Assembly: GCA_030536665.1 (NCBI GenBank)
Contig: JAUNPO010000003.1
Location: 1 to 32,325, forward strand
Source of the DNA: Pseudomonadota bacterium
Lineage (GTDB): Bacteria > Pseudomonadota > Alphaproteobacteria > RF32 > CAG-239
Direction: 5' to 3'
DNA: 32,325 bases
Below, piece by piece: positions 14,591 to 29,425 of this stretch. Under the pieces are notes generated by a model. That model was not told where the DNA came from and did no database searches. It saw only the letters and a program-made list of their open reading frames with translations. Numbering within the stretch: the stretch's first letter is position 1; each line of letters opens with the position of its first letter. The position numbers and the translations under genes are program-made.

Positions 14591-14678
14591 GGAGAGTTGG
14601 CAGAGTGGTAATGCAGCGGATTGCTAATCCGTCATCGTGAATAACGATGCACAGGTTCGAGTCCTGTACTCTCCGCCA
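14591..14678 (+). tRNA. tRNA-Ser (anticodon GCU)
   Basis: GGAGAGTTGGCAGAGTGGTAATGCAGCGGA-TTGCTAA-TCCGT, long variable arm, GGTTCGAGTCC, CCA end. Confidence 0.95.
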
Positions 14679-14681
14679 TTT

Positions 14682-14705
14682 GGAGCGCTTAGGCGCTCTT
14701 TTTTT
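14682..14705 (+). terminator. Terminator after tRNA-Ser(GCU)
   Basis: GAGCGC-ttag-GCGCTC plus T-run. Confidence 0.75.
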
Positions 14706-14706
14706 A

Positions 14707-14735
14707 TTGACTATTTTCCGGAATTAAAATAACAT
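14707..14735 (+). promoter_or_regulatory. Sigma70-type promoter driving leader A
   Basis: TTGACT-17bp-TAACAT, about 7 nt before the first leader hairpin. Confidence 0.7.
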
Positions 14736-14741
14736 CCTTTT

Positions 14742-14920
14742 TGCAGCGGCTGATTACCGTTGTGAGGTTTAGAACCCTCTTAAAAGTTTTCTGTTAATCA
14801 GATGTAAAAAACTGCCTTTTGGCTTATGGCTGGAAGGCAGTAGAATATGTTGAATATACTGCACTATTACTTTTAATAGGTTCTAACTTCCAGTCTCCTT
14901 TCATCAGGGAGGCTTTTTTG
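14742..14920 (+). ncRNA. C4/CI-like antisense RNA leader module, copy A
   Basis: Two 5' hairpins with target TTAGAACC and TTAAAAGT. Cloverleaf 14828-14895 (P1 GGCTGGAAG/CTTCCAGTC, P2 GCAGTA/TACTGC, P3 CTATTA/TAATAG) carries ACTTTTAA and GGTTCTAA. Terminator-like hairpin at 14892-14920. Confidence 0.7.
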
Positions 14921-14949
14921 TTTTATTCTATGCAAAATATGAGGAAGTT

Positions 14950-15621
14950 ATGAAAAAAAGTGTTTTGTTTTTGATGTGTTTTTTGTGTTCCTGCCGCTCG
15001 ATAACTTATCAGGACGTTAATCCGCTTATTCAGCCGAATGCCAACCTTTTGCCGGCTATGGAGAGTATTGTCGACGTCAGTAATCTGGAGGCGACTTACA
15101 CGGTCAGTTCCTATGCCGGGACGACCAACAATTTCGGGACGACGTTGGGAAATACAAATTGGGCTCAGACAACGGCTATTTCCGGCGTTTCATATAAAGA
15201 TCCGCGGGTTCAGGATGTTATTAATGTTTTCAACAAAGAAGTTAAGGAAAACATCACATCGCCTTATGGCGCTAAGAAAGGGTATATTGTTCTGACATTG
15301 GGATACAGAGGGGTGGATCAGTCGTTTATTTATCCGTTTGTGTCTTTGTTTAGCCTTGGAACCATAAATTTCTTCGGTTTTCCGGGAGATGAGGTGAAAC
15401 AGTCCTTGGAGGTTGAGGTCGAAATCCGCAATAACAACAAGGAGCTTGTCAAGCGTTATGTTGAGAATGTTATAGATACACAGTATGTTGCCATGTATTG
15501 GGGATATAGTAAAGACAATGTCTGGAGAAAAGTTGCGGCAGACAATATAAAACAGGCTTTGCAAAAAATCAGGGACAGAATTAACAGTGATGCCGCCGAA
15601 ATTAAAAAGAAATTGAAATAG
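14950..15621 (+). CDS. Putative lipoprotein
   Basis: MKKSVLFLMCFLCSC lipobox-type signal; GAGG RBS; internal hydrophobic segment. Confidence 0.75.
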   Translation: MKKSVLFLMCFLCSCRSITYQDVNPLIQPNANLLPAMESIVDVSNLEATYTVSSYAGTTNNFGTTLGNTNWAQTTAISGVSYKDPRVQDVINVFNKEVKENITSPYGAKKGYIVLTLGYRGVDQSFIYPFVSLFSLGTINFFGFPGDEVKQSLEVEVEIRNNNKELVKRYVENVIDTQYVAMYWGYSKDNVWRKVAADNIKQALQKIRDRINSDAAEIKKKLK

Positions 15622-15670
15622 GGACAAAAGCCCCGGAGAGGTCAAATATTTCCGAGGCTTTGCTTTTGGG
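15609..15670 (+). repeat. 62-bp direct repeat, copy 1 (gene 3' end plus bidirectional terminator)
   Basis: 58/62 identical to 17039-17100. Confidence 0.9.
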
Positions 15671-15708
15671 AACTTTTATAGACTTTTTGCAAAGTTATTT
15701 CGGTGAGA

Positions 15709-16866
15709 TTACAAAGGATTGCTTTCAGGTGAAAGCAGTGCAATATAGCCGGCGTAAGCGTAAGTCTGTCCCCATTTTTTCTCGGAGGTATTCGTGATGA
15801 TTCCGAGCTTTATAAGGCGGTTGATTGAGCTGATAATTGTCGGGCGGGCAAGATTGATTTTCTTTTCAATTTCAGCAACGGTTAAAACCGGCTTTTGTTC
15901 AAATTGTTGCAATATTTCTAAAGCAGACGGATGAGCGCGACCTAAATCTTGCAGCTTATTTTCATCTTCAGCAAAAAGTTTTTGAATTTTGAGAATCGTT
16001 TTTCTGGCATCATCAGAGGTTTCAATAATTCCCTCCAGGAAGAAATTAAACCAGTTTTCCCAGTCGCCGTCATAACGGACATTGTTTAGGTATTCATAAT
16101 ATAATGAGCGGTTTTTCTTAAAAAATAAGCTAAGATAAAGAAACGGTGATTTTAAAATTCCTTTAACACATAAAAAGAACGTGATCAGCAGACGTCCCAA
16201 TCGGCCGTTGCCGTCTAAAAATGGGTGGATGGTTTCAAATTGCACATGAATCATTGCGGCTTTAATCAATGTAGGAATGTTATCTTCTTTATTCATAAAG
16301 ACTTCCAACTGTCCTAAAATATCCATCAGTTTATCCGGCGGACAGGGAACAAATCTGGCATTGCCCGGTCTGGTGCCGCCAATCCAGTTTTGTGAAGAGC
16401 GGAATTCTCCCGGCAGTTTGGTCTTACCTCGGGAATTTTTGAGCAAAATAGCGTGAATTTCCTTAATTAATCGCAAGGATAAGGGGAAGTTGTCATTAAT
16501 TCTTCTAATGCCATAATCCAGGGCAGTAACATATGATGACACTTCCGAAGCATCAGCAACGGGAATTCCTTGTGTCTGACTGGCTTCGTATTTCAGTAAA
16601 TCATCTAAAGTAGATTGCGTTCCTTCTATTTGAGAGGACAACAGCGCTTCTTTACGGACATACATATAATTGATAATCGCCGGATTAGGAACTGTTGAAA
16701 TAACGCCATTTAGGGCGCCAATCGCCTGATTAGCTTTTTCTAACAGAGGAGATATGGCTTCCAAATCAACAGTCGGCTTTGGTGGCAAGACATTCGGGAC
16801 ATATGCCTGATAGCTCTCGGAGCTTAGGGAACATTTAATCAATTTTCCTTGAATACCTCTTTGCAT
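15709..16866 (-). CDS. Fic family protein (class II) with probable C-terminal HTH
   Basis: Canonical HPFLDGNGRLGR motif; N-terminal SSQIEG autoinhibitory motif; GGAGG RBS. Confidence 0.93.
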   Translation of the reverse strand: MQRGIQGKLIKCSLSSESYQAYVPNVLPPKPTVDLEAISPLLEKANQAIGALNGVISTVPNPAIINYMYVRKEALLSSQIEGTQSTLDDLLKYEASQTQGIPVADASEVSSYVTALDYGIRRINDNFPLSLRLIKEIHAILLKNSRGKTKLPGEFRSSQNWIGGTRPGNARFVPCPPDKLMDILGQLEVFMNKEDNIPTLIKAAMIHVQFETIHPFLDGNGRLGRLLITFFLCVKGILKSPFLYLSLFFKKNRSLYYEYLNNVRYDGDWENWFNFFLEGIIETSDDARKTILKIQKLFAEDENKLQDLGRAHPSALEILQQFEQKPVLTVAEIEKKINLARPTIISSINRLIKLGIITNTSEKKWGQTYAYAGYIALLSPESNPL

Positions 16867-17038
16867 ATGCCCTCCTTTAACAAAACTTATAGGTATATGG
16901 TAACATTTAACTTTAACAAGTCAAGAACAAAAGTTAAAGATAACAGATTAAGTTTAATTTTTTTATGAAAAAGTTAAAGATAAAATGCGATGTATGGCGA
17001 TGTTTTTGTATTTTGATAATTTTTCTAAAATGGCAGCT

Positions 17039-17100
17039 GAAATTGAAGTAGGGACAAAAGCCCCGGAAAAGTCAAATATTTCCGGGGCTTTGCTTTTGGG
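17039..17100 (+). repeat. 62-bp direct repeat, copy 2 (contains terminator hairpin)
   Basis: AAAGCCCCGGAAA...TTTCCGGGGCTTT; matches 15609-15670. Confidence 0.9.
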
Positions 17101-17115
17101 GCTGTTTTTTTTTGT

Positions 17116-18453
17116 TTAACGCTGGTTTTGCAAGTCAAGGATTTGACGGTTGTTGGCGTTATGGCGTTGCTGCAGTTCTTTCGGCGCCCGGTTATAAGCG
17201 CTGTATGAGCCGCTGCCTTTCACGCCTTTGCCGTTGCGTCCGGCTTGTAAAACAAGATTGTTAATGTATTCAAGGGATTGTTTTTCTCCGCCGAGTAATT
17301 TGCGAATGTTGCGGTTTTCTGCGGAATTTGGCGCAATTTTATCATACATTGTAAAAGCATGGGCATACCATTCGCGGGTGGTTCCGCCGCTGTATTTTAT
17401 GGCGCCTTTTTCAATCAGAGTGTCAATTTGTTTATAGAGGTTGTCGCGTTTTTCCTTGCCGAGGAGGATTTCCAACGAGGTGTCAAAACGGTTTTTATAG
17501 GCTTTTTGTAACGCATCGTCAGCGGTAATCTTTTGTTTGTCAGCCGTTTGAGACGGGACCGCAAACTGCGAAGCTGCAATCGTTTTGACTTTTTCCTGAG
17601 CTTTTGATTGGGATTGCGCTTTTATTTCCGTGTCAAATTTGAGCTGTTCCTGTTCTGCCCGGGTTATTTCCTTGTTGGCCTTATGCGCCAACAATCCGGC
17701 AAAAAGAATGCCGCCGATGACCGCGATTTTTTTTGCATTGCGTGCCAGAAATTCTTTGCTGTTATGGAAGATTTTCGGCCAAAAAGCTTTTTGGCGGCGT
17801 TCAACTTCGTGATAAAGCGAAACTTTTGTCTCCCGGGGCGCCGGCGTATATTTGCCGTGGCGGAGAATGTTCTGCTGGCGCCAGGTGCCGAAAAGCCGGC
17901 TGAATTCGTCAATATTGGCAGGAACGGCTTCTTCGCGGCGGATGATGCGTTCCAGACGCTGTTGTCCGTGGCTGTTGAGTTTATCCAGAATGTTTCGGAC
18001 AGACGGCTGCGGGGCTGCAGCCAGGGACTGTTTGATATAAATCAGGTCATCTGTCGGCGCTTTTTTGATTTTCTTTTTGCTGTTAACCAAAGTGGTGATG
18101 TATTTGATATCGCCTATTTTCTGTTGGTGTTTCTGCTGTTGTTTTTGCGCTTTGAGGTCAATTTGAAGCTGACGAAAGGCCGGTCGGAGCAGAATTCTCA
18201 ACTCGCGGCGCTTGCTGCGTGAAGCTTCATGTATCAAAAGGCGCAGATATTCATAAGCATCCGGCGTTATCTCGACTTTACGTTTGAGATAATTTTTCAG
18301 CAGTTCTGCGGTTTGTGCTTCAATGGCATAATACTGGCCGCTGTTGAATGATTTGCGGTCATAGCGGGAAGGGATGCTGCTTTGTGAAGCGGCATACATT
18401 TTTAGGAGTTCAGCATCAAAAATATCAGCATTGTATTTTTTGTACATTTTCAT
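17116..18453 (-). CDS. Hypothetical basic protein with one central TM segment (start uncertain, 18447-18495)
   Basis: Long ORF, K/R/Q-rich, KIAVIGGILFAGLLAH hydrophobic stretch; TTGACA at 18514-18509 favours a downstream ATG. Confidence 0.8.
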   Translation of the reverse strand: MKMYKKYNADIFDAELLKMYAASQSSIPSRYDRKSFNSGQYYAIEAQTAELLKNYLKRKVEITPDAYEYLRLLIHEASRSKRRELRILLRPAFRQLQIDLKAQKQQQKHQQKIGDIKYITTLVNSKKKIKKAPTDDLIYIKQSLAAAPQPSVRNILDKLNSHGQQRLERIIRREEAVPANIDEFSRLFGTWRQQNILRHGKYTPAPRETKVSLYHEVERRQKAFWPKIFHNSKEFLARNAKKIAVIGGILFAGLLAHKANKEITRAEQEQLKFDTEIKAQSQSKAQEKVKTIAASQFAVPSQTADKQKITADDALQKAYKNRFDTSLEILLGKEKRDNLYKQIDTLIEKGAIKYSGGTTREWYAHAFTMYDKIAPNSAENRNIRKLLGGEKQSLEYINNLVLQAGRNGKGVKGSGSYSAYNRAPKELQQRHNANNRQILDLQNQR

Positions 18454-18604
18454 TTTTATTAACCCGGAATGTTGGAATTTAGACATAAATAACACTTTTG
18501 TTAATGTTTGTCAATAATGTGCGTGCTTTTTTTATGCGTTTTAATAAAAATTAAATAAAGTTAGTGTAGATATGACATTGAGTTTTATTTGAGAAAGTTA
18601 AAAT

Positions 18605-18868
18605 ATGGGATTTTATCTGAAAAAGGGCTTTAATATCGGTCCGGTACGGATTAATTTGTCAAAGTCCGGCGTCGGTGTTTCCGTCGGCGGCAAGGGGCTG
18701 CGTTTTGGCAGCGGGCCGAAGGGAAATTATGTCCATGCCGGGCGTGGCGGCCTTTATTACCGCAAAAGCCTGTCCGCAAGGTGGGGAATTGTCGTCCTTA
18801 TTGCTGCCGTTGTTGCGGTTGCGGCATATTATGCCCTGAAAAGCGGCGTTATCAGTATAAATTTGTGA
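18605..18868 (+). CDS. DUF4236 domain protein with C-terminal TM
   Basis: MGFYLKK..GPVRINLSKSGVGVSVGGKG...GLYYRK pattern. Confidence 0.85.
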   Translation: MGFYLKKGFNIGPVRINLSKSGVGVSVGGKGLRFGSGPKGNYVHAGRGGLYYRKSLSARWGIVVLIAAVVAVAAYYALKSGVISINL

Positions 18869-18876
18869 GTGGCAGA

Positions 18877-19422
18877 ATGCAGAATATTGACAATATAATT
18901 GAGATTCTCGGAAAATTTAAAGAGCTGAAAAGAACGGGGTGGGTTCGGAAGAATATTGAAAATCCGGAATCCGTTGCCGACCATTGTTTCGGCATCAGTC
19001 TGCTGGCTTTGTTGCTGGCGCCGGAGGGGCTGGATTTCGGACGCTGTATGAAAATGGCGATTGTTCATGATTTGGCAGAAGTTTATGTCGGGGATATTAC
19101 GCCTTATGACGGTATCAGCGAAGAAGAAAAAGCCAAAAACGAGGCGGCGGCCATGGCGCGGATTGCCGAAGAAATAAATTTTCCCGATATTGTTCGCTGG
19201 TTTCGGGAATATGAAGACGGCGAAACGCCGGAAGCACGGTTTGTGAAAAATATAGACAAGCTGGAAAGCGCCGTACAGGCGGTTTATTATCAAAAACATC
19301 GCAAAACGGAAGATGGGTTGGCTCGGGAATTTATCAAAACGGCGATGCGTCGTTCTGTTGCTGATGCTAATGACAGCGAAATTCAGATTATTTATCAGCA
19401 GCTTCTGGATATTATCCGATAG
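18877..19422 (+). CDS. HD domain phosphohydrolase (HDDC2/YfbR-like)
   Basis: LKRTGW, ESVADH, MAIVHDLAE..GDITP, EARFVKNIDKLE. Confidence 0.9.
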   Translation: MQNIDNIIEILGKFKELKRTGWVRKNIENPESVADHCFGISLLALLLAPEGLDFGRCMKMAIVHDLAEVYVGDITPYDGISEEEKAKNEAAAMARIAEEINFPDIVRWFREYEDGETPEARFVKNIDKLESAVQAVYYQKHRKTEDGLAREFIKTAMRRSVADANDSEIQIIYQQLLDIIR

Positions 19423-19439
19423 GAATTTTGGCAGACTAC

Positions 19440-19468
19440 AAAAAAGCGCTTGTTTAAGCGCCTTTTTT
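19440..19468. terminator. Bidirectional terminator
   Basis: A-run, GCGCTT-gttt-AAGCGC, T-run between convergent genes. Confidence 0.65.
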
Positions 19469-20118
19469 TATTCTGCGGCTTCAGGGGACAGCCCTTCGCG
19501 GTATCTCTTTATGGTATTGAACACTTTAGGGTAATACCCGTCATCATGCGGAACAAAGTCTTTGCGCCAGAAATATCCGGTTTTGAATTCGCTTTTGTTA
19601 TCCGCGGTTTTGACCAATCCTGAAGAAAAGATTTTATCTATCTTTTTGTTGAAGAGGTTAATCAGGTCTTCCAGATCAAACTCAAAAATGCCGTCAACTT
19701 CGTTCGGCTGGAGTGTCAGTTCCGAGAAATCCTTGTCTACTTCACAAAGGTAGGTGGGATTAAATTCGTTGTCAATCATATTGTCATCGCGGTAATAACG
19801 CTTTGAGGTAAAAAGCTTGACCAGATTTTCACGGGGAATTTTCAGCCCGAGTTCTTCCTCGATTTCCCGGATGCCGTCACGGTTTTGTTCGCCGCTTTTC
19901 AAGTGTCCGGCAGCAGAAGTTGCCAAGAGGTTGGGATAAAGGCGTTTGTTTGAGCTACGGAGCTGCATCCAGACTTTGCACTTGTTTTCCGGTAGCGGTT
20001 TGATTATCCAGCAACGGAAAGCCTTGTGCCACAAACCTTCGCGGTGTGCCTGCGCTTTAGTGGCCGTTCCGATGGGATTCATGTTTTCATCATAGATATC
20101 AATTATTTCATCAGTCAT
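19468..20118 (-). CDS. NUDIX hydrolase (IDI-like fold)
   Basis: IDIYDEN..AHREGLWH, AAGHLKSGE..IREIEEELGL, LQPNEV; AGGAGG RBS. Confidence 0.88.
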   Translation of the reverse strand: MTDEIIDIYDENMNPIGTATKAQAHREGLWHKAFRCWIIKPLPENKCKVWMQLRSSNKRLYPNLLATSAAGHLKSGEQNRDGIREIEEELGLKIPRENLVKLFTSKRYYRDDNMIDNEFNPTYLCEVDKDFSELTLQPNEVDGIFEFDLEDLINLFNKKIDKIFSSGLVKTADNKSEFKTGYFWRKDFVPHDDGYYPKVFNTIKRYREGLSPEAAE

Positions 20119-20151
20119 GGGATTCCTCCTGATGTTTTTTAGTGGAAAAGG

Positions 20152-21897
20152 TCAGCGGGCCATGAAAACAAACCCGGCGACAGGCTTGCCGTCTTCAAGG
20201 CGGATGACGGCTTCCTTTATGGCTATTTCAGCGTATCCTGATTTGGTTAACAAGTTGTTAACGTAGTCTTTGTTGTGTTTATAACGACCGTCAGTTGTTA
20301 TTGAGAAGCCATCTTTTTCGCTTTTTTCAACGGAAAAGTACAGAGGGCAGGGGGCGCAGCGGCTGATAACGGGTTCCAGGCTGCCCATGTAGCAGAAGAC
20401 GTCTGCGGCAATAATCAATGCCGGCGGCGGGGCAGGCGGATTGTTCAGAAAATCAAGAATATCGCTGTTTATCAGTTCTTTATACAGATTTTTGGAACGG
20501 GCAATGTCAAGCATGGCCGCGGAAATATCGACGCCGATAAAGCTGTTTTCTTCGGATTTCAATTGTTCGGCAATCAGGCCGGTGCCGCAGCCCAAATCCC
20601 AAACCAGTCCGCGCGGCGTTCCTGTGCATTCCTTTATTATCTCGGGCAGGCGGTAATCCAGTTTTTTTAGAGTTTGTTCGTAGGAAGAGGCAAAATTGTC
20701 AAAAAGTTTTTGGCTGAACAGGCTGTCGCCGCTCTTGTCTGCTTGTCCGGAAAAGGCGGCGGAGAGATGTTGGGCAAAGATGTTTTCAGGGCTGTCTTTA
20801 AGCCAGTTTGCGGCAATTTGTTCAGCTTCCTGCGGTTTTTCCCGGTGTAAGAGCAGGAGTGTTTCGTAGATATTGACGGAAAATTCTTCAGTTTGCGGTT
20901 CGATTTTATAGGCGTTAAAAAACAGGCCGAGCGCTTCGGTATAATCTTTCATGTCTTTGCAGATTATACCCAGGTTGTTGCTGACGGCAGGGTTGTCCGG
21001 CGCAAGAAGGACTGCTTTGCGGCTGGTTTCGACAGCTTCAAGCAAGCGTCCGGTTCGGTAGAGCATATCGGCATAATTTATCAGCGCTTCGGTATTATTT
21101 GGCGCAAGTTCCAACGCTTTGACAAACAAGGCTTCTGCTTCATCAAATTCCCGGTTCTTGCTGGCAATAGCGGCGAGGCCGGCGAGGGCTGGGACTGATT
21201 TGGGATTGATTGCGCAGGCCTTAGCAAAATAATCCCGCGCCGAAGCGTCATCTTTTAGCTTCAAACAGGAAAAAGCTGCGGCAAGGCAGGCGTCCGCCGA
21301 TTCCGGCACAATTTCCAATGCCGACCGGGCGTGGGCAAGGGCTTCTTTATAACGGTTTTGCTCGAGGCATATAACGCTGAGTTGGTAATGAGCCTCCGCA
21401 CAATCGGGGAAACGGGAGAGAAGGGCGTTCAAGTCCTTTTCCGGGGCGTCGGAAAGCAAGGCCAGTCCAACCAAAGGTTCGGCGTATGTTTCATCCAATG
21501 CCGCGGCTTTATGGAAACAGGCTGCGGAAGCCTGAAAATTGCCGAGTGTTTTGTGAAGTTGTCCCAGGTTATACCAGGCTTCTTTCACATCCGGAGTTAA
21601 GGCCAGCATTTTCTGATAAGTCTCTATCGCCTCATGCGGTTTACCCAGTTCAGCCAGCGACAAGGCGAGGTTAAAACGGTATGGCGCATGGTCAGGGCTG
21701 ATTTTTATCGCTTTATAAAAGAGGTTGACGGCTTCGTTATGCACGCCCCGCGCCTGAGCAACCAATCCCAAAAGATTGAGGACGTCCGGGTTTTCCGGCG
21801 CCGTTTCCAATATCTGTCGGTAAAGCTGTTCCGCCTCGGCAAATCGTCCGGACTGGTGGAGCTCTAAAGCGCGCGAAAACATAAAATCGTAAGTCAT
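20152..21897 (-). CDS. TPR repeat protein with C-terminal SAM-dependent methyltransferase
   Basis: Multiple TPR-like repeats; LFDNFASSYE, DLGCGTG, GVDISAAML, AADVFCYMG; GAGG RBS before ATG 21897. Confidence 0.9.
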   Translation of the reverse strand: MTYDFMFSRALELHQSGRFAEAEQLYRQILETAPENPDVLNLLGLVAQARGVHNEAVNLFYKAIKISPDHAPYRFNLALSLAELGKPHEAIETYQKMLALTPDVKEAWYNLGQLHKTLGNFQASAACFHKAAALDETYAEPLVGLALLSDAPEKDLNALLSRFPDCAEAHYQLSVICLEQNRYKEALAHARSALEIVPESADACLAAAFSCLKLKDDASARDYFAKACAINPKSVPALAGLAAIASKNREFDEAEALFVKALELAPNNTEALINYADMLYRTGRLLEAVETSRKAVLLAPDNPAVSNNLGIICKDMKDYTEALGLFFNAYKIEPQTEEFSVNIYETLLLLHREKPQEAEQIAANWLKDSPENIFAQHLSAAFSGQADKSGDSLFSQKLFDNFASSYEQTLKKLDYRLPEIIKECTGTPRGLVWDLGCGTGLIAEQLKSEENSFIGVDISAAMLDIARSKNLYKELINSDILDFLNNPPAPPPALIIAADVFCYMGSLEPVISRCAPCPLYFSVEKSEKDGFSITTDGRYKHNKDYVNNLLTKSGYAEIAIKEAVIRLEDGKPVAGFVFMAR

Positions 21898-22010
21898 GTT
21901 ATTCCTCAATTATTCATCTGGTCGGATTTTAACAGCATTTGGCGAAAAAAACAATGTCGGAGTGCAGATTTTGCTTGAAATTTATAAAATATATGGTAAC
22001 TTGCAGTCAC

Positions 22011-22079
22011 TTCCGGGAATGCGGATGTGCGTTTTTGTGCCTTCCCGTTTGGTTTGCAAACAGGCCAAAACTACCGGAA
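22011..22079 (+). promoter_or_regulatory. Structured rpsD 5' leader (candidate autoregulatory element)
   Basis: TTCCGG...CCGGAA enclosing GGGAA/TTCCC and TTTGGTTTG/CAGGCCAAA stems. Confidence 0.45.
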
Positions 22080-22117
22080 CACTAATGAAATTGCAATAAA
22101 AATAAAGGAAAACTTTA

Positions 22118-22732
22118 ATGAAAAGTATTGAAAACGCTAAGAAAAAAGCCACACGCCGTTATGGCGCAAATATTTGGGGCGAATCCAACGCTTCTTTTGT
22201 TAAAAGAGAAACTGCTCCGGGTCAGCATGGTGCCAGAAAAAAGAAAATGACCGACTATGGTACTCAATTGTATGCCAAGCAGAGACTGAAAACATCTTAT
22301 GGCAATATCTCTGAAAAGCAGTTTGCCAAGTATTATGCCGAAGCAATCAGAAGAAGAGGGGACGCTGCCGAAAACCTTATCGGTATTTTGGAATCCCGTT
22401 TGGACAACTTGGTTTACAGAGCAAAGTTTGTTCCTTCCGTATTTGCTGCCCGTCAGTTTGTTAACCACAACCATATTTTGGTTAACGGTAAGAGAGTAAA
22501 CATTCCTTCTTATATGGTTAAAGCTGGTGATGTTATTGAAATTAAAGAAAAATCCAGACAGCTGCCGATGGTTTTGGCTGCCGTCGAAGCTACAAACAGA
22601 GATGTTCCGGGCTATCTGGAAGTTGATTCTAAGAAGATGACAGCTAAATATTCTTTCGTACCGAAGTTTGATGATGTTCCTTATGCCTGCACAATGGAAC
22701 CGAACTTGGTTATCGAATTTTACTCAAGATAA
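22118..22732 (+). CDS. rpsD: 30S ribosomal protein S4
   Basis: [44 protein letters not shown]. Confidence 0.98.
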
Positions 22733-22754
22733 TCATTTTCTTGAAAGATTTAGG

Positions 22755-22783
22755 AAGGCCTGCCGTTGTGCAGGTCTTTTTTT
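22755..22783 (+). terminator. rpsD terminator
   Basis: AAGGCCTGC/GCAGGTCTT plus T-run. Confidence 0.8.
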
Positions 22784-22932
22784 GTGTTTAAAGTGTCTTA
22801 AGTGTCGGGTATGTGCTTCTTTATTTGCGCTGATAGCGCAGTTTGAGGCAAAAATAAACTCACCGTGATGATTTTCTTCGATAAAACAGTGACTTAATAA
22901 AAAATCGAGCTCTCAGAACGAGCTCATGAGTT

Positions 22933-23205
22933 TTGTATGTGTATTTACAGCTTAAGCTGAGTGAGAAATACTTGATTTTTTTATGTGACATTTTGTTTCT
23001 CCTTATTTGTTGGTTGTTGTATGGGGTGTTGTTTTACTTGCTCTGGCTTGTTATTATTTTCTCCTTTAAAAATGTTGCTTGTCTTAACATAAGATATATT
23101 ATGCGACAAAATTATTGTCGGGGGGAGATATTGTTCTTTATATATTATGTTGTTCTTTCTTGTTGTCTTATCTGTTGTATGGCAGCGCTCTCGCCTGCTT
23201 TTTGA
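22933..23205 (+). CDS. Possible small membrane protein or gene remnant
   Basis: Two hydrophobic segments; TTG start with no RBS; very AT-rich. Confidence 0.3.
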   Translation: MYVYLQLKLSEKYLIFLCDILFLLICWLLYGVLFYLLWLVIIFSFKNVACLNIRYIMRQNYCRGEILFFIYYVVLSCCLICCMAALSPAF

Positions 23206-23229
23206 CATCTTAAATTTGGGAGAGTAATA

Positions 23230-23502
23230 ATGATTATTCACATTGATGATGAAAGAGGATTTGAGCTGCTGTGTGTTTCTCATGAGCTTCAAAAGAATGT
23301 AAACAAAGAGCTTTGCAGAGAAAATCTTAATATTAATCTGTATGCTAAGCGTTATACTTGCGAAAAACTTAGGAACGCAGGCTTTTCAGATAAAGAAATT
23401 GCAGGAATATTGGAAATTAGTATTGCTATGGTTGATAAGTTAATGAAAAATACGGTAGATTTTTGGTTTTCAAAATGGATTGTTCCAATAATAAAGAGAT
23501 AG
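23230..23502 (+). CDS. Small helix-turn-helix protein
   Basis: LRNAGFSDKEIAGILEISIAMVDKLM HTH pattern; GGAG RBS. Confidence 0.7.
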   Translation: MIIHIDDERGFELLCVSHELQKNVNKELCRENLNINLYAKRYTCEKLRNAGFSDKEIAGILEISIAMVDKLMKNTVDFWFSKWIVPIIKR

Positions 23503-23693
23503 CAGTAAGAAAACAGCGCATATCAAGGGCTAAAGTTGTGTTTATAAAGCCAAGGAAAGTCGTTAAAGTCCCTTCCCTCATTCTTGGTCTGGCTAAGATA
23601 GGTAGATTTTATTTTTTTTGAAGTTAATAAGACTTATTTCTCAGGTATATTAGCCTGCTCTCTTACTTTTATTCAATATTAATAGAAAAGACA

Positions 23694-23722
23694 TTGCAAT
23701 AATCATGATGTTATGTTACGTT
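23694..23722 (+). promoter_or_regulatory. Sigma70-type promoter driving leader B
   Basis: TTGCAA-17bp-TACGTT with TG extension, about 7 nt before the first leader hairpin. Confidence 0.6.
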
Positions 23723-23728
23723 TTTGTT

Positions 23729-23935
23729 TAAGCGGCGGAGTTTTGCTGCTTAGGGCGTCAGAAACCCTTTTAAAATAAACAGTCGCCAAGCATAGCGACT
23801 TAAAACTATATGCCGATTTCTGTCATGGACGGATGTCGGCTAAATAAGGTTACGGCCAAATAAGCCGAGCCGTTGTTTGTTTATTTTATACGGTTTCTGA
23901 ACATCCGCCCGCCTTTATCAGGTGGGTTTTGTTTT
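23729..23935 (+). ncRNA. C4/CI-like antisense RNA leader module, copy B
   Basis: Two 5' hairpins with target TCAGAAACC and TAAAATAAACA. Cloverleaf 23827-23910 (P1 GGACGGATGT/ACATCCGCCC, P2 CGGCT/AGCCG, P3 GCCGT/ACGGT) carries TGTTTATTTTA and GGTTTCTGA. Terminator-like hairpin at 23907-23935. Confidence 0.72.
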
Positions 23936-23959
23936 AACTAGAACGAAAGGATGTTTAGA

Positions 23960-24382
23960 ATGAAAAAAGTATTTTTACTTTTAACTATTGGTGTATTTGC
24001 TGGTTTTCTTACGGCTTGTGCTACAATCATGAGGGAAAACAGTCAATCTATACCAATTAAATCAAATGTAGAAAAAGTTAATATAAAAATTACCAATAAA
24101 GTGGGAGAGCTTATTTTTGAAGGCCAAACACCGACAACATTAACTCTTAAAACTTCGGGCAAGAGCGGATATTTCAATCCTGAGAAATATACGGTTGTTG
24201 CTTCCAAAGACGGGTATCAGACACAAACGACTATCATTGACTGGCATGTCAGCGGTTGGTATTATGTTGGAAACCTTGCTTTGGGCGGTTTAATTGGATA
24301 TTTGATTGTCGACCCAATAAGCGGAGATATGTATTATCTGGATGAAGAAGTTAATTTAAATATGTCTCCTGTTCAGAAATAA
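23960..24382 (+). CDS. Putative lipoprotein (PEGA-like, beta-rich)
   Basis: MKKVFLLLTIGVFAGFLTAC lipobox; CATI..Q.I.I.S, GQTP and C-terminal GGLIGYLIVDP pattern; AAGGA RBS fits ATG 23960. Confidence 0.8.
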   Translation: MKKVFLLLTIGVFAGFLTACATIMRENSQSIPIKSNVEKVNIKITNKVGELIFEGQTPTTLTLKTSGKSGYFNPEKYTVVASKDGYQTQTTIIDWHVSGWYYVGNLALGGLIGYLIVDPISGDMYYLDEEVNLNMSPVQK

Positions 24383-24389
24383 AAAATCG

Positions 24390-24417
24390 AGGCGGTAGAA
24401 ATACCGCCTTTATTTTA
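24390..24417. terminator. Terminator between convergent genes
   Basis: AGGCGGTA-gaaa-TACCGCCT hairpin. Confidence 0.7.
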
Positions 24418-26059: not shown

Positions 26060-27077
26060 GTGTTTTCCTCGAGTCAAAAGCATCACGAACTCCTTCCCCG
26101 ATAAAAATAAGCAAGGTCAGAAGCGTTGACAGAACAACGAATATGCTCAGACCAATCCACGGCGCCTGAAGATTATCTTTGCCCTGGCGCACCAAATCGC
26201 CGAGCGAGGGATAGTCGCCGGACAGGCCAAGTCCGAGAAAATCCAAGGCAGTCAGTGCAACAATGGCCTCAGAGAGGAGAAACGGGACAAAGGTTATGGT
26301 GGCAATGACGGCATTGGGAAGAATATGGCGGCGGATGATGCGGCCATTACCTACGCCGAGAGCCTTGGCAGCTTTGACAAACTCAAAATTGCGCACGCGC
26401 AGAAATTCGGCACGGACAACAGATGTCAGGCTGGTCCAAGAGAAGAAAAGCAGGATAATCAGCAAAGTCCAGAAACCCGGCGTGAAAATGCTGGCGGCAA
26501 TAATCAGAATGAACAACTGCGGCAGCGCTTCCCAGATTTCAATAATTCTTTGCATAATGATGTCGGTTTTTCCGCCGAAATATCCCTGAACGGCGCCGGC
26601 AAAAATGCCTATCAGCGATGAAAACAGCGTCAGAACAAAGGCAAAAACCACGGACAGACGAATGCCATATAAAATCCGGGCAACAATGTCCCTGCCCTCG
26701 TCATCTGTTCCCAGCCAGTGAGCGGCCGAGGGCGGCGTTGGGGTCGGCTTGTCAAGATTGTAGTCTACCGTATTGAAAGAAAACGGAATTATCGGCATTA
26801 TCATCCAGCCGTTTTGATTGATTTGGCTGACGATAAACGGATCCTTGTAGTCTGCTTCGGTCGGAAAGTCGCCGCCGAAGAAGGTATCATTATAGGTTAT
26901 AGCCAGCGGAAAAAGATATTGTCCTTTATATTTGACAATCAAAGGCTTATCATTGGCAATTAATTCTGAAAAACAGGTGATGAGCATTATCAGCAAGAAC
27001 AGAAACAACGCCAGGCAAGCTCTTTTGTTGTGGCGAAAAGAGCTGAGCCGGCGCTGAGTCAGAGGCGATAATGTCAT
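26052..27077 (-). CDS. yejE: Peptide ABC transporter permease (YejE-like)
   Basis: ELIANDKPL, FGGDFPTEADY.DP, HWLGTDDEGRD, VRAEFLR.RNFEFVKAAKALG. Confidence 0.9.
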   Translation of the reverse strand: MTLSPLTQRRLSSFRHNKRACLALFLFLLIMLITCFSELIANDKPLIVKYKGQYLFPLAITYNDTFFGGDFPTEADYKDPFIVSQINQNGWMIMPIIPFSFNTVDYNLDKPTPTPPSAAHWLGTDDEGRDIVARILYGIRLSVVFAFVLTLFSSLIGIFAGAVQGYFGGKTDIIMQRIIEIWEALPQLFILIIAASIFTPGFWTLLIILLFFSWTSLTSVVRAEFLRVRNFEFVKAAKALGVGNGRIIRRHILPNAVIATITFVPFLLSEAIVALTALDFLGLGLSGDYPSLGDLVRQGKDNLQAPWIGLSIFVVLSTLLTLLIFIGEGVRDAFDSRKTHG

Positions 27078-29425
27078 TGTTTGTCCGCAGCCGGTGCCGT
27101 TGTTGCCGCTGCATTATCCGGCCGGCGGGAGGTTTCGCTGCTTTGCGGCAGAAGATTTTCAGGCGCATCAGCGGCGTTTGACGGCAGAGGCGCCTCGTTT
27201 TTTACCGCTTCAATATTTTCAAGCGGTTGTGGCTGAGGCTCACTTTCCTGTTTGTCCGCCGGTTGCGTTTGGGCTGTACTTGCTTCAGGTTGTACGGCTG
27301 TTTCCGGCTGACTTTCCGGTATGTTTATGGCCGGTGTTTCTTCTGTCAGCGGATTTTTGAGCATTTCGGCCTTAAGGCTGGCCGTCGGCGCTTCAGGTTC
27401 AACCGGGATTTCCTTTTCAATGATTTTGTTTTCTTTGACAATGGTATTTTCGGTTATGGGCGCCGGTTCGTTTACAGCTGCTGCCGGCTGCGGGGCTGGT
27501 TTGTCCGGTGCCTGTTGTTCCGGTTTTACAGCTGTTTCGCTCGGAAGTTCTTTAACTTCAATGCCGTTGGCTTTCTGCCAATACGGATACCAAAGGATAA
27601 AGAAGTTGTCGGCTTTGCTGATTTCTTCCGGCGTGATGCTGCGGGTGGAAAGCGCTTTTTTCAGCTGTGTCCGGTCTTCTTCGTTCAAATTCAGCCCTTT
27701 AAACTCCGTACATTGGGTTTTTTTGAACAAATAGGCGGCGGTTATATCCGAGGCTTTGCAGATTTCCGTCTTTATTTGGTTTTCTTTATGCAAAGGGTCG
27801 CGGATTGCCATGGTGACGGCATGATTAGCGCCAAAATTCAGCTCTGTGCGGTCTGTTTCCTTATATTCTTTGTCCTGAGCGCTGCTGACACCTTCAATAA
27901 CGACAACGGCATTTTTATCAGCGCCTTTGGCGGCCAGGGTGTCCATAAAGTTTTGGAGTTTGCCAAGGAGGCAGGCATATTGTTCGGCGTAAGCGTTGCG
28001 GCGAGCTTGAATTCCGGAACTGTCGGCGCTGCCGCGGTCATGCATGGGCAGCCATTGCTCTGTCGGTTTAACCATGCAGAATTCGTTATAAATGAACATA
28101 TCTGCAGGCATGTCTACATAGACAAGATAGGCGCCGCTGCCCTTGTCGTTGGCAATATCAATGGCGGCTAAATCCAGAGCCTGCAGAGAGTTGACAACAT
28201 AAAGCTTGTCGTAACGGTTTTTGAATGAATCCGGAAGAAAAGCGGCGGCAACAGAATCCGGCGCAAACAATCCGGAGCTTTCCAGCCATTGGCCGTAGAG
28301 CAGTTTGACTTTTTCGGAAGTGGTGGCTGCGAGGACGCTGACGTCTGCCGGCATGTTGGCCTTGTTCAGGCAGCGGTCAAGCGACTGCTGGCCATAGAGG
28401 TGGCACATATCCAACCCGCGGGACTGGTACGCCGACACTTTGTATTGGGATTTTTTGAAAATTTCGGTCAGACGGCTGCCGAGCAGATAGTCGGTTTTGT
28501 CGTTTACGGGACGGAACTGCCAGTCGCAGCATTGATGCGAGGCGGGCGTGGTGAAGTTTTTGTTTCCGCTGACCAGAGGGTTGAGAATTTCGGCCTGATT
28601 TTTCGGCGCGTCCTTGTGTTCGACATAAGCGTTGGCATAAATGTCGAAATTGTTGCGATTGTAGAAGCCAAGCATGATTTTTTGCAGGTTTTCCAGTTTG
28701 GAATTGTCTTTGGCATTGGCGTCTTTCATCTCGTTAAGATAACCGTAAGGCGCGGCGTTGGCCAGATAAATATTGATGAACTTTTTGCCGTTTTCAACAC
28801 CGGCGGAGGATGTGTCATATTCATAGATGAAATTATTATTGTTATTTCTATCCATGTAGGCGCTGAACAAAATCCAGACATTTATGACAGCCAGCGTGCC
28901 AATCAGGTACATTTGATTGGAGCGGGAGGACATCCAGAGGTAAACCAGCGTCAACGCAGCGACAAGACCGCTCATGACGAGCCAGGCTCTGCCGTCGACA
29001 AAGGCGGCAGCCCCCTCACCCAAATACAACAGCATGCCGCGGGTCATAAAAGCGTCTTTGTCAAAAAGGGCGAACTGGTTAATCATCATTGCCGTAAACA
29101 GCCCGGCGACAAGCGCCAGCATAATGTTTTGCAGCCATTCGGAAAAAGACAACAGCAGCATGACCAGCATGGAAATGCAGAAAATACTTAAAAGGATATT
29201 GACGATTTCAGGTTTGGGCAGAAGGACTTCGCCAAACAAGGCATAGCCGCCGGCTTTGGCAAACAGGCAGAAGTTGATGCTCAGCAGCAGCGCCATAATC
29301 AGCCCTTTGACGATGATGCCGTAGAGATGCCAGCCCCAGCCGAGCATTTTGAGTTTAACGCCGCCGTTTTTCGTCACAACGACTGAAACCGGCTGGTTAT
29401 CCAGAATTACATCTTCCATGGTCAA
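27074..29425 (-). CDS. Membrane protein: ~5 TM helices, degenerate sulfatase/alkaline-phosphatase-like domain, P/E/Q-rich tail
   Basis: N-terminal hydrophobic helices; YAEQYACLLGKLQNFMDTLAAKGADKNAVVVIEG resembles the superfamily's C-terminal motif; low-complexity C-terminus. The fold call is inference. Confidence 0.7.
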   Translation of the reverse strand: MTMEDVILDNQPVSVVVTKNGGVKLKMLGWGWHLYGIIVKGLIMALLLSINFCLFAKAGGYALFGEVLLPKPEIVNILLSIFCISMLVMLLLSFSEWLQNIMLALVAGLFTAMMINQFALFDKDAFMTRGMLLYLGEGAAAFVDGRAWLVMSGLVAALTLVYLWMSSRSNQMYLIGTLAVINVWILFSAYMDRNNNNNFIYEYDTSSAGVENGKKFINIYLANAAPYGYLNEMKDANAKDNSKLENLQKIMLGFYNRNNFDIYANAYVEHKDAPKNQAEILNPLVSGNKNFTTPASHQCCDWQFRPVNDKTDYLLGSRLTEIFKKSQYKVSAYQSRGLDMCHLYGQQSLDRCLNKANMPADVSVLAATTSEKVKLLYGQWLESSGLFAPDSVAAAFLPDSFKNRYDKLYVVNSLQALDLAAIDIANDKGSGAYLVYVDMPADMFIYNEFCMVKPTEQWLPMHDRGSADSSGIQARRNAYAEQYACLLGKLQNFMDTLAAKGADKNAVVVIEGVSSAQDKEYKETDRTELNFGANHAVTMAIRDPLHKENQIKTEICKASDITAAYLFKKTQCTEFKGLNLNEEDRTQLKKALSTRSITPEEISKADNFFILWYPYWQKANGIEVKELPSETAVKPEQQAPDKPAPQPAAAVNEPAPITENTIVKENKIIEKEIPVEPEAPTASLKAEMLKNPLTEETPAINIPESQPETAVQPEASTAQTQPADKQESEPQPQPLENIEAVKNEAPLPSNAADAPENLLPQSSETSRRPDNAAATTAPAADKQ

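Follow-up and report, generated by a model that had tools for sequence, protein, structure and literature searches.

Two RNA modules in a 32,325-nucleotide (nt) stretch of contig JAUNPO010000003.1 (assembly GCA_030536665.1, an alphaproteobacterium of the CAG-239 lineage; referred to here as the window) each lie directly in front of a lipoprotein gene. With moderate confidence, we read them as two members of a family of host-chromosomal 5′ leader RNAs, about 200 to 230 nt long, that follow the plan of the phage P1 c4 region. The family as a whole is very probably a C4-type regulatory leader of surface-protein genes. A preliminary description of the window had reported two complete modules upstream of mutually unrelated lipobox genes. 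Indeed, a covariance model of the cloverleaf (R1), built from 37 copies in this analysis, scores 85.5 bits in module 2 and 47.6 bits in module 1, and the two lipoproteins are unrelated to each other (BLASTP E value, 8.6). Leaders of the family share a single order of parts: a sigma-70-type promoter, a small hairpin, an element a1 in a hairpin loop, an element b1, two further hairpins, the cloverleaf, a terminator, the ribosome site, and the gene.

Far from being solitary, as they had been described, the modules belong to a set of 27 intact copies in the source genome, a 1.94-Mb assembly in 229 contigs that is 93% complete and 7.5% contaminated (G000). A blastn search with module 2 finds 31 loci there at approximately 68 to 75% identity. 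R1 finds 33 matches at an E value of ≤0.01, of which 26 are intact copies scoring 78.6 to 89.1 bits, one is module 1 (47.6 bits), five are copies split by an insertion (38 to 43 bits), and the last is a weak, distant variant (23.7 bits). Contigs C80 (near position 774) and C215 (near position 2404) of this assembly carry similar, non-identical copies of one coding stretch, which together with the 7.5% contamination suggests a mixture of two strains, so that the true number of copies may be a little lower than the count given here. The cleaner genome G001, from the same genus, still has 28 matches. More widely, R1 matches 134 of 149 sampled genomes of the window's taxonomic family (f1), with 1 to 31 matches per genome, and 19 of the 20 genera in a sample of the order. 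R1 matches in this sample number roughly 750. The single sampled genome of the order's second family, which is only 79% complete, gave no match. Among 149 other families of the class, each represented by one genome, 15 have a match, mostly in small genomes. The orientation of the leader and its distance to the start codon are fixed, with a gap of about 25 to 35 nt and no conserved promoter between terminator and start codon.

The cloverleaf, 69 to 85 nt long in the window and 70 to 85 nt in the family plan, is made up of a closing stem that bears two hairpins; hairpin 2 carries b′ in its loop and is followed immediately by a′. The 22 pairs of the cloverleaf are supported by the alignment, in which 88.8% of cells are paired, compared with 27 to 39% when partners are slid. 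Eight pairs have changed on both sides, a level that none of 500 shuffles reaches. Cloverleaves begin with GGA or GGG, and the unpaired stretches AAUAAGG and AAAUAAG of hairpin 1 are conserved across families.

The upstream elements a1 and b1 are complementary to a′ and b′ of the same copy, and this complementarity is nearly private to each copy. In 25 aligned source-genome leaders, the duplex of a1/b1 with a′/b′ averages −20.6 ± 1.4 kcal/mol for own partners and −8.2 ± 2.6 kcal/mol for non-own partners. The own a′/b′ is the best partner in all 25 copies, and 24 of the 25 addresses are distinct, with one identical pair. These results bear out the earlier assignment of a C4-like topology, in which a1/b1 and a′/b′ are placed as in P1. 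RNAalifold, run blind on the same alignment, also predicts the a1:a′ helix, and at its three variable pairs 11, 6, and 16 of the 25 sequences have changed on both sides. The same pattern holds in a genome of another genus (G135), which has 29 R1 matches, 21 of them examined and 16 parsed: the own partner is best in 16 of 16 parsed copies, with 15 distinct addresses.

Of the 96 loci compared across genomes, parsing succeeded for 59; the other 37 comprise 35 variants from outside f1 and two f1 loci. Helices of at least seven pairs between a1 and a′ occur in 56 of the 59 parsed loci (48.5% for non-own partners) and between b1 and b′ in 47 of 59 (6.3% for non-own partners). The parsed loci hold 47 distinct b1 sequences and only 8 distinct a1 sequences. 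In a noisier duplex test with a wide window, covering 85 loci, the own partner ranks best in 33 and among the top three in 51; the distant variants of genomes G180, G234, and G212 show no upstream address within the window of that test. The a1 hairpin motif has 39 hits in the source genome, of which 31 directly precede an R1 match, 1 belongs to a leader cut by a contig end, and 7 have no leader features in their flanks. Some copies share b and differ in a, which fits an exchange of the inner b1-to-b′ tract between copies.

In an alternative hairpin, P3, a stretch of approximately 13 bases just before the cloverleaf pairs with its first 13 bases, so that neither the closing stem nor hairpin 1 can form at the same time. 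Own P3 duplexes average −18.8 kcal/mol, versus −12.4 kcal/mol with partners of another sequence class, and they reach −12 kcal/mol or lower in 90 of 96 loci, compared with 47% of controls. RNAalifold, whose helix has 13 pairs, and single-sequence folds both pick P3, and module 1 and the distant variants retain it with entirely different sequences. A terminator-like hairpin followed by a T run lies after the cloverleaf in 85 of the 96 loci.

A segment formed by the end of a′ and the closing stem's 3′ strand is complementary to the ribosome-site region further downstream and covaries with it. The pair is AACATCC/GGATGTT in most copies, AACTTCC/GGAAGTT in module 1, and AACTCCC/GGGAGTT or GAACACC/GGTGTTC in other families. 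This helix has at least seven pairs in 69 of 96 loci, compared with 15.1% for non-own partners of another class, and at least eight pairs in 47 of 96, compared with 5.2%. Averaged over the folding ensembles of 25 full leaders, the core of the ribosome site has a probability of 0.11 of being unpaired, and its chief partners in most copies lie in the ACAUCC stretch. The preliminary description had seen no second target downstream of either cloverleaf. That is correct for a copy of a and b, which is absent (own, −12.46 kcal/mol; non-own, −12.56 kcal/mol; own best in 0 of 25), but it overlooks the ribosome-site region, which covaries with the 3′ strand of the cloverleaf.

The genes behind these leaders are mostly exported. 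Of the 27 intact copies in the source genome, 24 lie before members of one paralogous secreted-protein family and three before lipoproteins, and in G135 a pilin-like N terminus follows 13 of the 21 copies examined; lipoprotein genes as the sole downstream class, as first proposed, are thus too narrow a description. The paralogous secreted proteins have 263 to 342 amino acids, start with MNINFKFLLLG, and have a cysteine-rich beginning of the mature part. Pfam and NCBIfam give this family no name, and the ESM Atlas provides, as a lead only, a Lcl_C/DUF1566-like C-terminal domain. To survey f1, one locus, the best-scoring R1 match, was taken from each of 56 other genomes, a choice that makes the sample lean to well-conserved copies. 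An exported or surface protein gene lies downstream in 48 of the 56, in agreement with the surface-protein association that had been suggested. These comprise 18 lipoproteins, 16 signal-peptide proteins starting with MK(N/K)KLL(I/M)TTALVA (6 were scanned with Pfam and 2 have a Chlamydia PMP repeat), 7 pilin-like proteins, 3 outer-membrane beta-barrels, 2 cysteine-rich secreted proteins, and 2 small membrane proteins. A glycosyltransferase or other cytoplasmic gene follows in four of the remaining loci, and no open reading frame (ORF) follows in the other four. The genome-wide covariance model search and tally of downstream genes, which the preliminary description had called for, did not find the copies of this family mostly before Ash, Icd, or antirepressor genes.

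In families of the class other than f1, leaders built on this plan stand before genes for lipoproteins, outer-membrane barrels, pilin-like proteins, TM2-domain proteins, and glycosyltransferases; a TM2-domain membrane protein is found behind a leader in two of these families (locus L067 in G180 and L071 in G264). Lower-scoring relatives in other families precede small helix-turn-helix (HTH) proteins, a DNA methylase, and small proteins of unknown function, and the HTH and methylase neighbors suggest settings nearer to mobile elements. Seven variant leaders in G027 (L092 to L098) stand before small proteins of 66 to 95 amino acids, where an ORF was called, that carry the motif P[IV][DE]AT.KML.AG and have neither a Pfam match nor a signal peptide. 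Six copies of the pilin family in G135 (L159, L160, L162, L167, L170, and L173) have the usual first residues followed by divergence or an early stop; they could be frameshifted or decayed genes, or longer leader peptides.

C4-type RNAs are phage immunity factors. The CI RNA of satellite phage P4, which is likewise a phage immunity system, is a small RNA processed from a leader, and it pairs within the same transcript to cause early termination. Chromosomal relatives of C4 are many, and we know of no role for them. The P1 record has the order promoter P1c4, a1, b1, the 77-nt c4 RNA, a2, b2, and icd, and in c4 the second hairpin carries the complement of b1/b2 in its loop and is followed at once by that of a1/a2, the same placement as that of b′ and a′ in the family leaders. 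P1/P7 C4 and the family share a promoter, a1, b1, a spacer of approximately 45 to 65 nt, and a cloverleaf of about 77 nt on one transcript, and both RNAs pair with the ribosome-site region of the next gene. As in the family, short variable recognition sequences set the specificity of C4, according to the accessible parts of two reports (PMC12197685, PMC5320573).

The two also differ. In the family, the partner of the ribosome site is the closing stem's constant 3′ strand, whereas C4 uses b′, and the family leaders have an intrinsic terminator after the cloverleaf and no downstream a/b copy, unlike P1 C4 with its a2 and b2. They sit in host surroundings before surface-protein genes, with up to 31 matches per genome, in contrast to the icd/ant genes of C4. 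The Rfam C4 model (RF01695) finds nothing at an E value of ≤10, either in the window or among 17 related loci. When R1 was run on 2 kilobases of the P1 immunity region, its best match fell inside c4 and was weak (10.7 bits; E value, 0.055), which hints at a shared shape and falls short of showing homology. The family shares the C4 plan but misses the model score, a2/b2, and the phage setting.

Among Rfam models, only that of sRNA-Xcc1 (RF02221), which has the same three-helix plan, aligns repeatedly to the whole cloverleaf. It scores 32.2 bits in module 2 and 23.1 to 39.9 bits in 14 of 17 other loci, all below its cutoff of 53. This RNA is reportedly a trans-acting small RNA (sRNA) borne by integrons, transposons, and plasmids. 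One member lies upstream of an ORF6N gene in an APSE phage, according to the accessible part of a preprint (10.1101/2020.03.17.996009). Apart from these sub-threshold alignments, Rfam searches of the window and the 17 loci at an E value of ≤10 gave chance matches only. At gathering scores, the 4227 Rfam families matched two tRNAs in the window and neither leader.

Many chromosomal C4-like sRNAs in a single host genome are already in print, namely, those of Group 1 in Acinetobacter baumannii (Weiss et al. 2016, PMC5320573), so that calling the modules a new system was an overstatement. As far as the accessible part of that paper goes, these sRNAs vary in the a′ region and, like C4, seem to be cut out of longer precursors at a GGW motif located at the closing stem's 5′ end (PMC5320573). 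They match the Rfam C4 motif, which the family leaders do not, and they are presented as sRNAs with unknown targets; a link to surface-gene leaders, a private upstream address, and pairing with a ribosome site, all of which are features of the family, are not described there (PMC5320573, accessible part). Rfam 15 and a literature search that took in few subscription journals and no supplements yielded no description of the present leader. What is undescribed in these sources is the link to surface genes, the replacement of a2/b2 by a terminator plus constant pairing with the ribosome site, the P3 switch, and the private addresses across gene families. The family is a C4-like subfamily tied to a class of surface or exported genes in small-genome Alphaproteobacteria, in which the named relatives are uncultured and known from metagenome assemblies.

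From the arrangement of these parts, we infer that sequestration of the ribosome site, governed by a switch between two folds, is the probable mode of control. The gene would be off by default, with most transcripts ending at the leader terminator. In transcripts that read through, the anti-ribosome-site segment would hold the ribosome site and P3 would hold the 5′ half of the cloverleaf. Formation of the cloverleaf would then withdraw the anti-ribosome-site segment and free the ribosome site, and the copy-specific contact of a1/b1 with a′/b′ would tip the choice between the two folds. The terminated leader may accumulate, perhaps trimmed at the 5′ GG of the cloverleaf by analogy with the trimming of C4 by RNase P. 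It could then act in trans through its private address, solely on new transcripts of its own gene, giving one RNA feedback loop per gene. We prefer this address-specific action in trans as a working version, tentatively, because the unit is discrete and sRNA-like, because P1 sets a precedent, and because in G000 and G135 nearly all addresses are distinct and extra a variants occur. Candidate functions named in the preliminary description are transient expression after gene transfer, heterogeneous expression, and a response to cognate RNA from incoming elements.

The most far-reaching form of this proposal is that every member of the expanded surface families has a private address, that its terminated RNA feeds back in trans solely on its own gene, and that the device was co-opted from phage immunity; in this full form it is speculative and rather unlikely. 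The leader's carriers include the DUF1566-like secreted proteins of G000, the pilin-like proteins of another genus, single-copy lipoproteins, outer-membrane proteins, and PMP-repeat proteins. If the full proposal is true, each surface gene would have an independent on/off setting made by RNA alone, which would give cell-to-cell variety of the surface with no DNA rearrangement. The subfamily has a readable logic, in which the terminator would keep the gene off by default, the ribosome site would be sequestered, the two folds exclude each other, and the address matches itself. The dozens of natural variants are ready-made compensatory mutants that make the role of host C4-like RNAs testable. Further, the family may explain how large families of surface proteins are controlled, and the address pairs could be put to use as orthogonal RNA parts.

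Several results weigh against this picture of a private-address switch on surface genes. In 8 of the 56 surveyed loci, a cytoplasmic gene or no gene lies downstream. No positive selection on the address is apparent, as it diverges much like the terminator, at 0.54 versus 0.41 over all 300 pairs and at 0.27 versus 0.25 in the seven closest pairs. Selection against cross-talk accounts for the private addresses no better than does a combination of recombination and drift constrained only by complementarity. Nested folding reveals no clear switch either: blocking a1/b1 shifts access to the ribosome site from 0.11 to 0.07, and blocking b′/a′ only doubles it to 0.22, in a model that cannot represent kissing contacts. 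Lastly, the closing stem and the terminator share only two to three bases, which makes antitermination by the cloverleaf doubtful.

The equal divergence of address and terminator stem-loop counts for a purely cis-acting switch, in which the address is an intramolecular helix or docking contact that drifts neutrally and a protein, a ligand, temperature, or transcription speed selects the fold. Several other observations point the same way. The b sequences differ across genera even before the same downstream gene, so that only complementarity is kept; RNAalifold and single-sequence folds give a1:a′ as an ordinary nested helix; none of the 39 a1 motif hits in the source genome is an a1-type site away from leaders; and the conserved unpaired AAUAAGG and AAAUAAG of hairpin 1 are what a factor-binding site would look like. 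Against it, the terminator after the cloverleaf would give a discrete, stable RNA like the trans-acting P1/P7 kind, and G000 and G135 exceed the three a variants that dominate elsewhere, with 24 of 25 and 15 of 16 copies distinct. On this evidence, we regard a switch acting only in cis, the main rival to action in trans, as a possible account, on the unlikely side.

Far less probable is that the units are free-standing genes for trans-acting sRNAs that merely happen to lie upstream, with other mRNAs or incoming phages and plasmids that carry a/b sites as their true targets. Each unit does have its own promoter and terminator, 4 of the 56 loci have no downstream ORF, the HTH and DNA methylase neighbors of the distant relatives suggest mobile elements, and the accessible part of the A. 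baumannii report raises the same idea (PMC5320573). What speaks against independence from the next gene is that its ribosome-site segment covaries with the cloverleaf, that only the short, promoterless gap separates terminator and start codon, that leader and gene remain together across genera, and that the a1 hairpin motif was found only in leaders in the source genome. Least credible, and largely refuted, is the idea of prophage immunity remnants or a non-functional dispersed repeat. C4 RNAs are typically phage-borne, a Fic/DOC gene lies beside module 1, and the 140-amino-acid lipoprotein behind module 2 has approximately 40% identical relatives in four P22-like phage records. Pfam searches of 18 window ORFs and PHROGs searches of 10 window proteins, however, found no integrase, repressor, antirepressor, or virion structural gene near either module, in line with the preliminary description. 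The Pfam matches are to housekeeping families (gatA/gatB, rpsD, ATP-binding cassette and ZIP transporters, and NUDIX and HD enzymes) apart from the one Fic/DOC gene, and the PHROGs matches are solely to families of unknown function. The presence of R1 in 134 of 149 family genomes, the fixed orientation and start-codon distance, and compensated changes in all helices argue in the same direction.

Module 2 lies on the forward strand, as do all features of both modules listed here. Family alignment places its promoter at 23694 to 23722, with TTGCAA (23694 to 23699), a 17-nt spacer, and TACGTT (23717 to 23722) with an upstream TG; this promoter is absent from the listing of a consensus promoter scan. 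Folds give the first hairpin, P0, at 23729 to 23752, and folds and the pairing test give the upstream address at 23753 to 23781, composed of the a1 hairpin (23753 to 23767, with TCAGAAACC at 23758 to 23766) and b1 (23768 to 23781). Hairpin P2 follows at 23781 to 23800 in both the single-sequence fold and RNAalifold, and P3 at 23812 to 23840, where folds pair 23812 to 23824 with 23828 to 23840. The cloverleaf, identified by its R1 score and pair counts, spans 23826 to 23910 and contains the b′ loop (23874 to 23889), a′ (23892 to 23900), and the anti-ribosome-site segment AACATCC (23900 to 23906). Between the cloverleaf and the gene lies an intrinsic terminator at 23907 to 23937 (scan hairpin, 23907 to 23927), and the ribosome-site segment GGATGTT, assigned by its covariation with and complementarity to AACATCC, is at 23949 to 23955. 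The leader (23722 to 23938) folds much better than its shuffles, with a z score of −7.28 and none of 200 as good.

The module 2 gene (23960 to 24382) encodes a lipoprotein of 140 amino acids with a lipoprotein-type signal peptide and the lipobox LTAC. Relatives with a leader occur in at least seven other genomes (L041, L042, L069, L113, L114, L129, and the same gene in G003/G005), and both window lipoprotein genes retain their leader in other genera. The protein matches phrog_6823, a family of unknown function, with an E value of 7e-30. In phage epsilon34, the relative is gp15, a one-gene unit that ends in a terminator of its own; it neighbors mnt in the immunity I region, where phages often carry accessory genes. 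Only 118 nt lie upstream of gp15, too short for a leader (an R1 search was not made there). The 20 sequencing runs listed for this DNA contain only small shares (0.13 or less), all as contigs. In four of these runs, contigs of relatives align to the conserved leader (23751 to 23955) and to the gene's 3′ end. Two metatranscriptomic runs from a single study contain a 166-nt contig that spans 23768 to 23916 and a 700-nt contig that spans 23817 to 23955 and continues into an ATG-starting sequence unlike the window. Such contigs show neither ends nor expression, and the libraries may contain DNA, so that these matches show only that relatives exist.

Module 1 has the same layout. A promoter-like site found by the consensus scan (14707 to 14735; TTGACT, 17 nt, TAACAT; 9 of 12 matches) is weak on its own because such sites are frequent in the region (31 found versus 19.2 expected). 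The minimum-free-energy fold gives P0 at 14743 to 14763. The upstream address (14764 to 14787), assigned from the sequence, from long-range pairing in the fold, and from the layout common to the family, comprises the a1 hairpin (14764 to 14779), in which TTAGAACC at 14769 to 14776 pairs with a′, and b1 (TAAAAGT, 14781 to 14787). P3 lies at 14811 to 14841 and in the fold pairs 14811 to 14823 with 14829 to 14841. The cloverleaf at 14827 to 14895, matched by R1 with an E value of 1.4e-9, has b′ in the loop of hairpin 2 (about 14868 to 14875), a′ at 14879 to 14886, and the anti-ribosome-site segment AACTTCC at 14885 to 14891. The intrinsic terminator before the gene (14892 to 14921; scan hairpin, 14892 to 14914) has nine pairs and then a T run, and the ribosome-site segment GGAAGTT (14943 to 14949) is assigned by its complementarity to AACTTCC and the family covariation. 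Here too the leader (14735 to 14925) folds much better than shuffles (z score, −5.45; none of 200 as good).

The gene at 14950 to 15621 encodes a putative lipoprotein of 223 amino acids with the N terminus MKKSVLFLMCFLCSC, a lipoprotein-type signal peptide, and no Pfam family. A 41% identical relative in genus g3 has a module-1-type leader with a different, compensated address. The claim that each of the two genes has its own terminator holds for module 2, where the consensus scan places one at 24389 to 24410; on the 3′ side of the module 1 gene, only a long-loop hairpin with a T-rich tail is seen, which the scan does not list.

Upstream of module 1 and outside it, a tRNA-Ser(GCU) gene occupies 14591 to 14678 on the forward strand, followed by a terminator at 14682 to 14699. 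The Fic/DOC gene, with a C-terminal winged-helix domain, lies on the reverse strand at 15709 to 16866, converges on the module 1 lipoprotein gene, and matches phrog_5978 with an E value of 1e-93. Together with the tRNA-Ser gene it could mark a small island, in which no integrase is seen. Two long ORFs of the window, at 17116 to 18495 (459 amino acids) and 27074 to 29425 (783 amino acids), both on the reverse strand, have no Pfam or PHROGs family.

Some leaders depart from the common form. In the source genome, a 268-base-pair element with terminal inverted repeats of about 32 base pairs is found at an identical point in the b′ loop of hairpin 2 in three complete cases (contig C25, 14119 to 14386, at locus L025; C175; and C75) and in part at the ends of C40, C62, C108, C133, and C135. 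It looks like a small non-autonomous transposon that targets the b′ loop, or else like one interrupted leader that was later duplicated. The four variant cloverleaves L072 to L075 in G180 (contigs C24 and C7) share a near-identical stretch of about 90 nt after the terminator, which repeats the 5′ strand of the closing stem (CCAGAAGTT) approximately 70 nt downstream. None of the four is followed directly by an ORF; a glutamyl-tRNA synthetase gene lies 246 nt downstream of one of them. The weak 23.7-bit match of the source genome (C209, 3586 to 3699, reverse strand) has a large insertion in the cloverleaf and keeps its terminator, and it may be a further diverged leader; the gene after it encodes a signal-peptide protein starting with MKKNLLFTTALVA.

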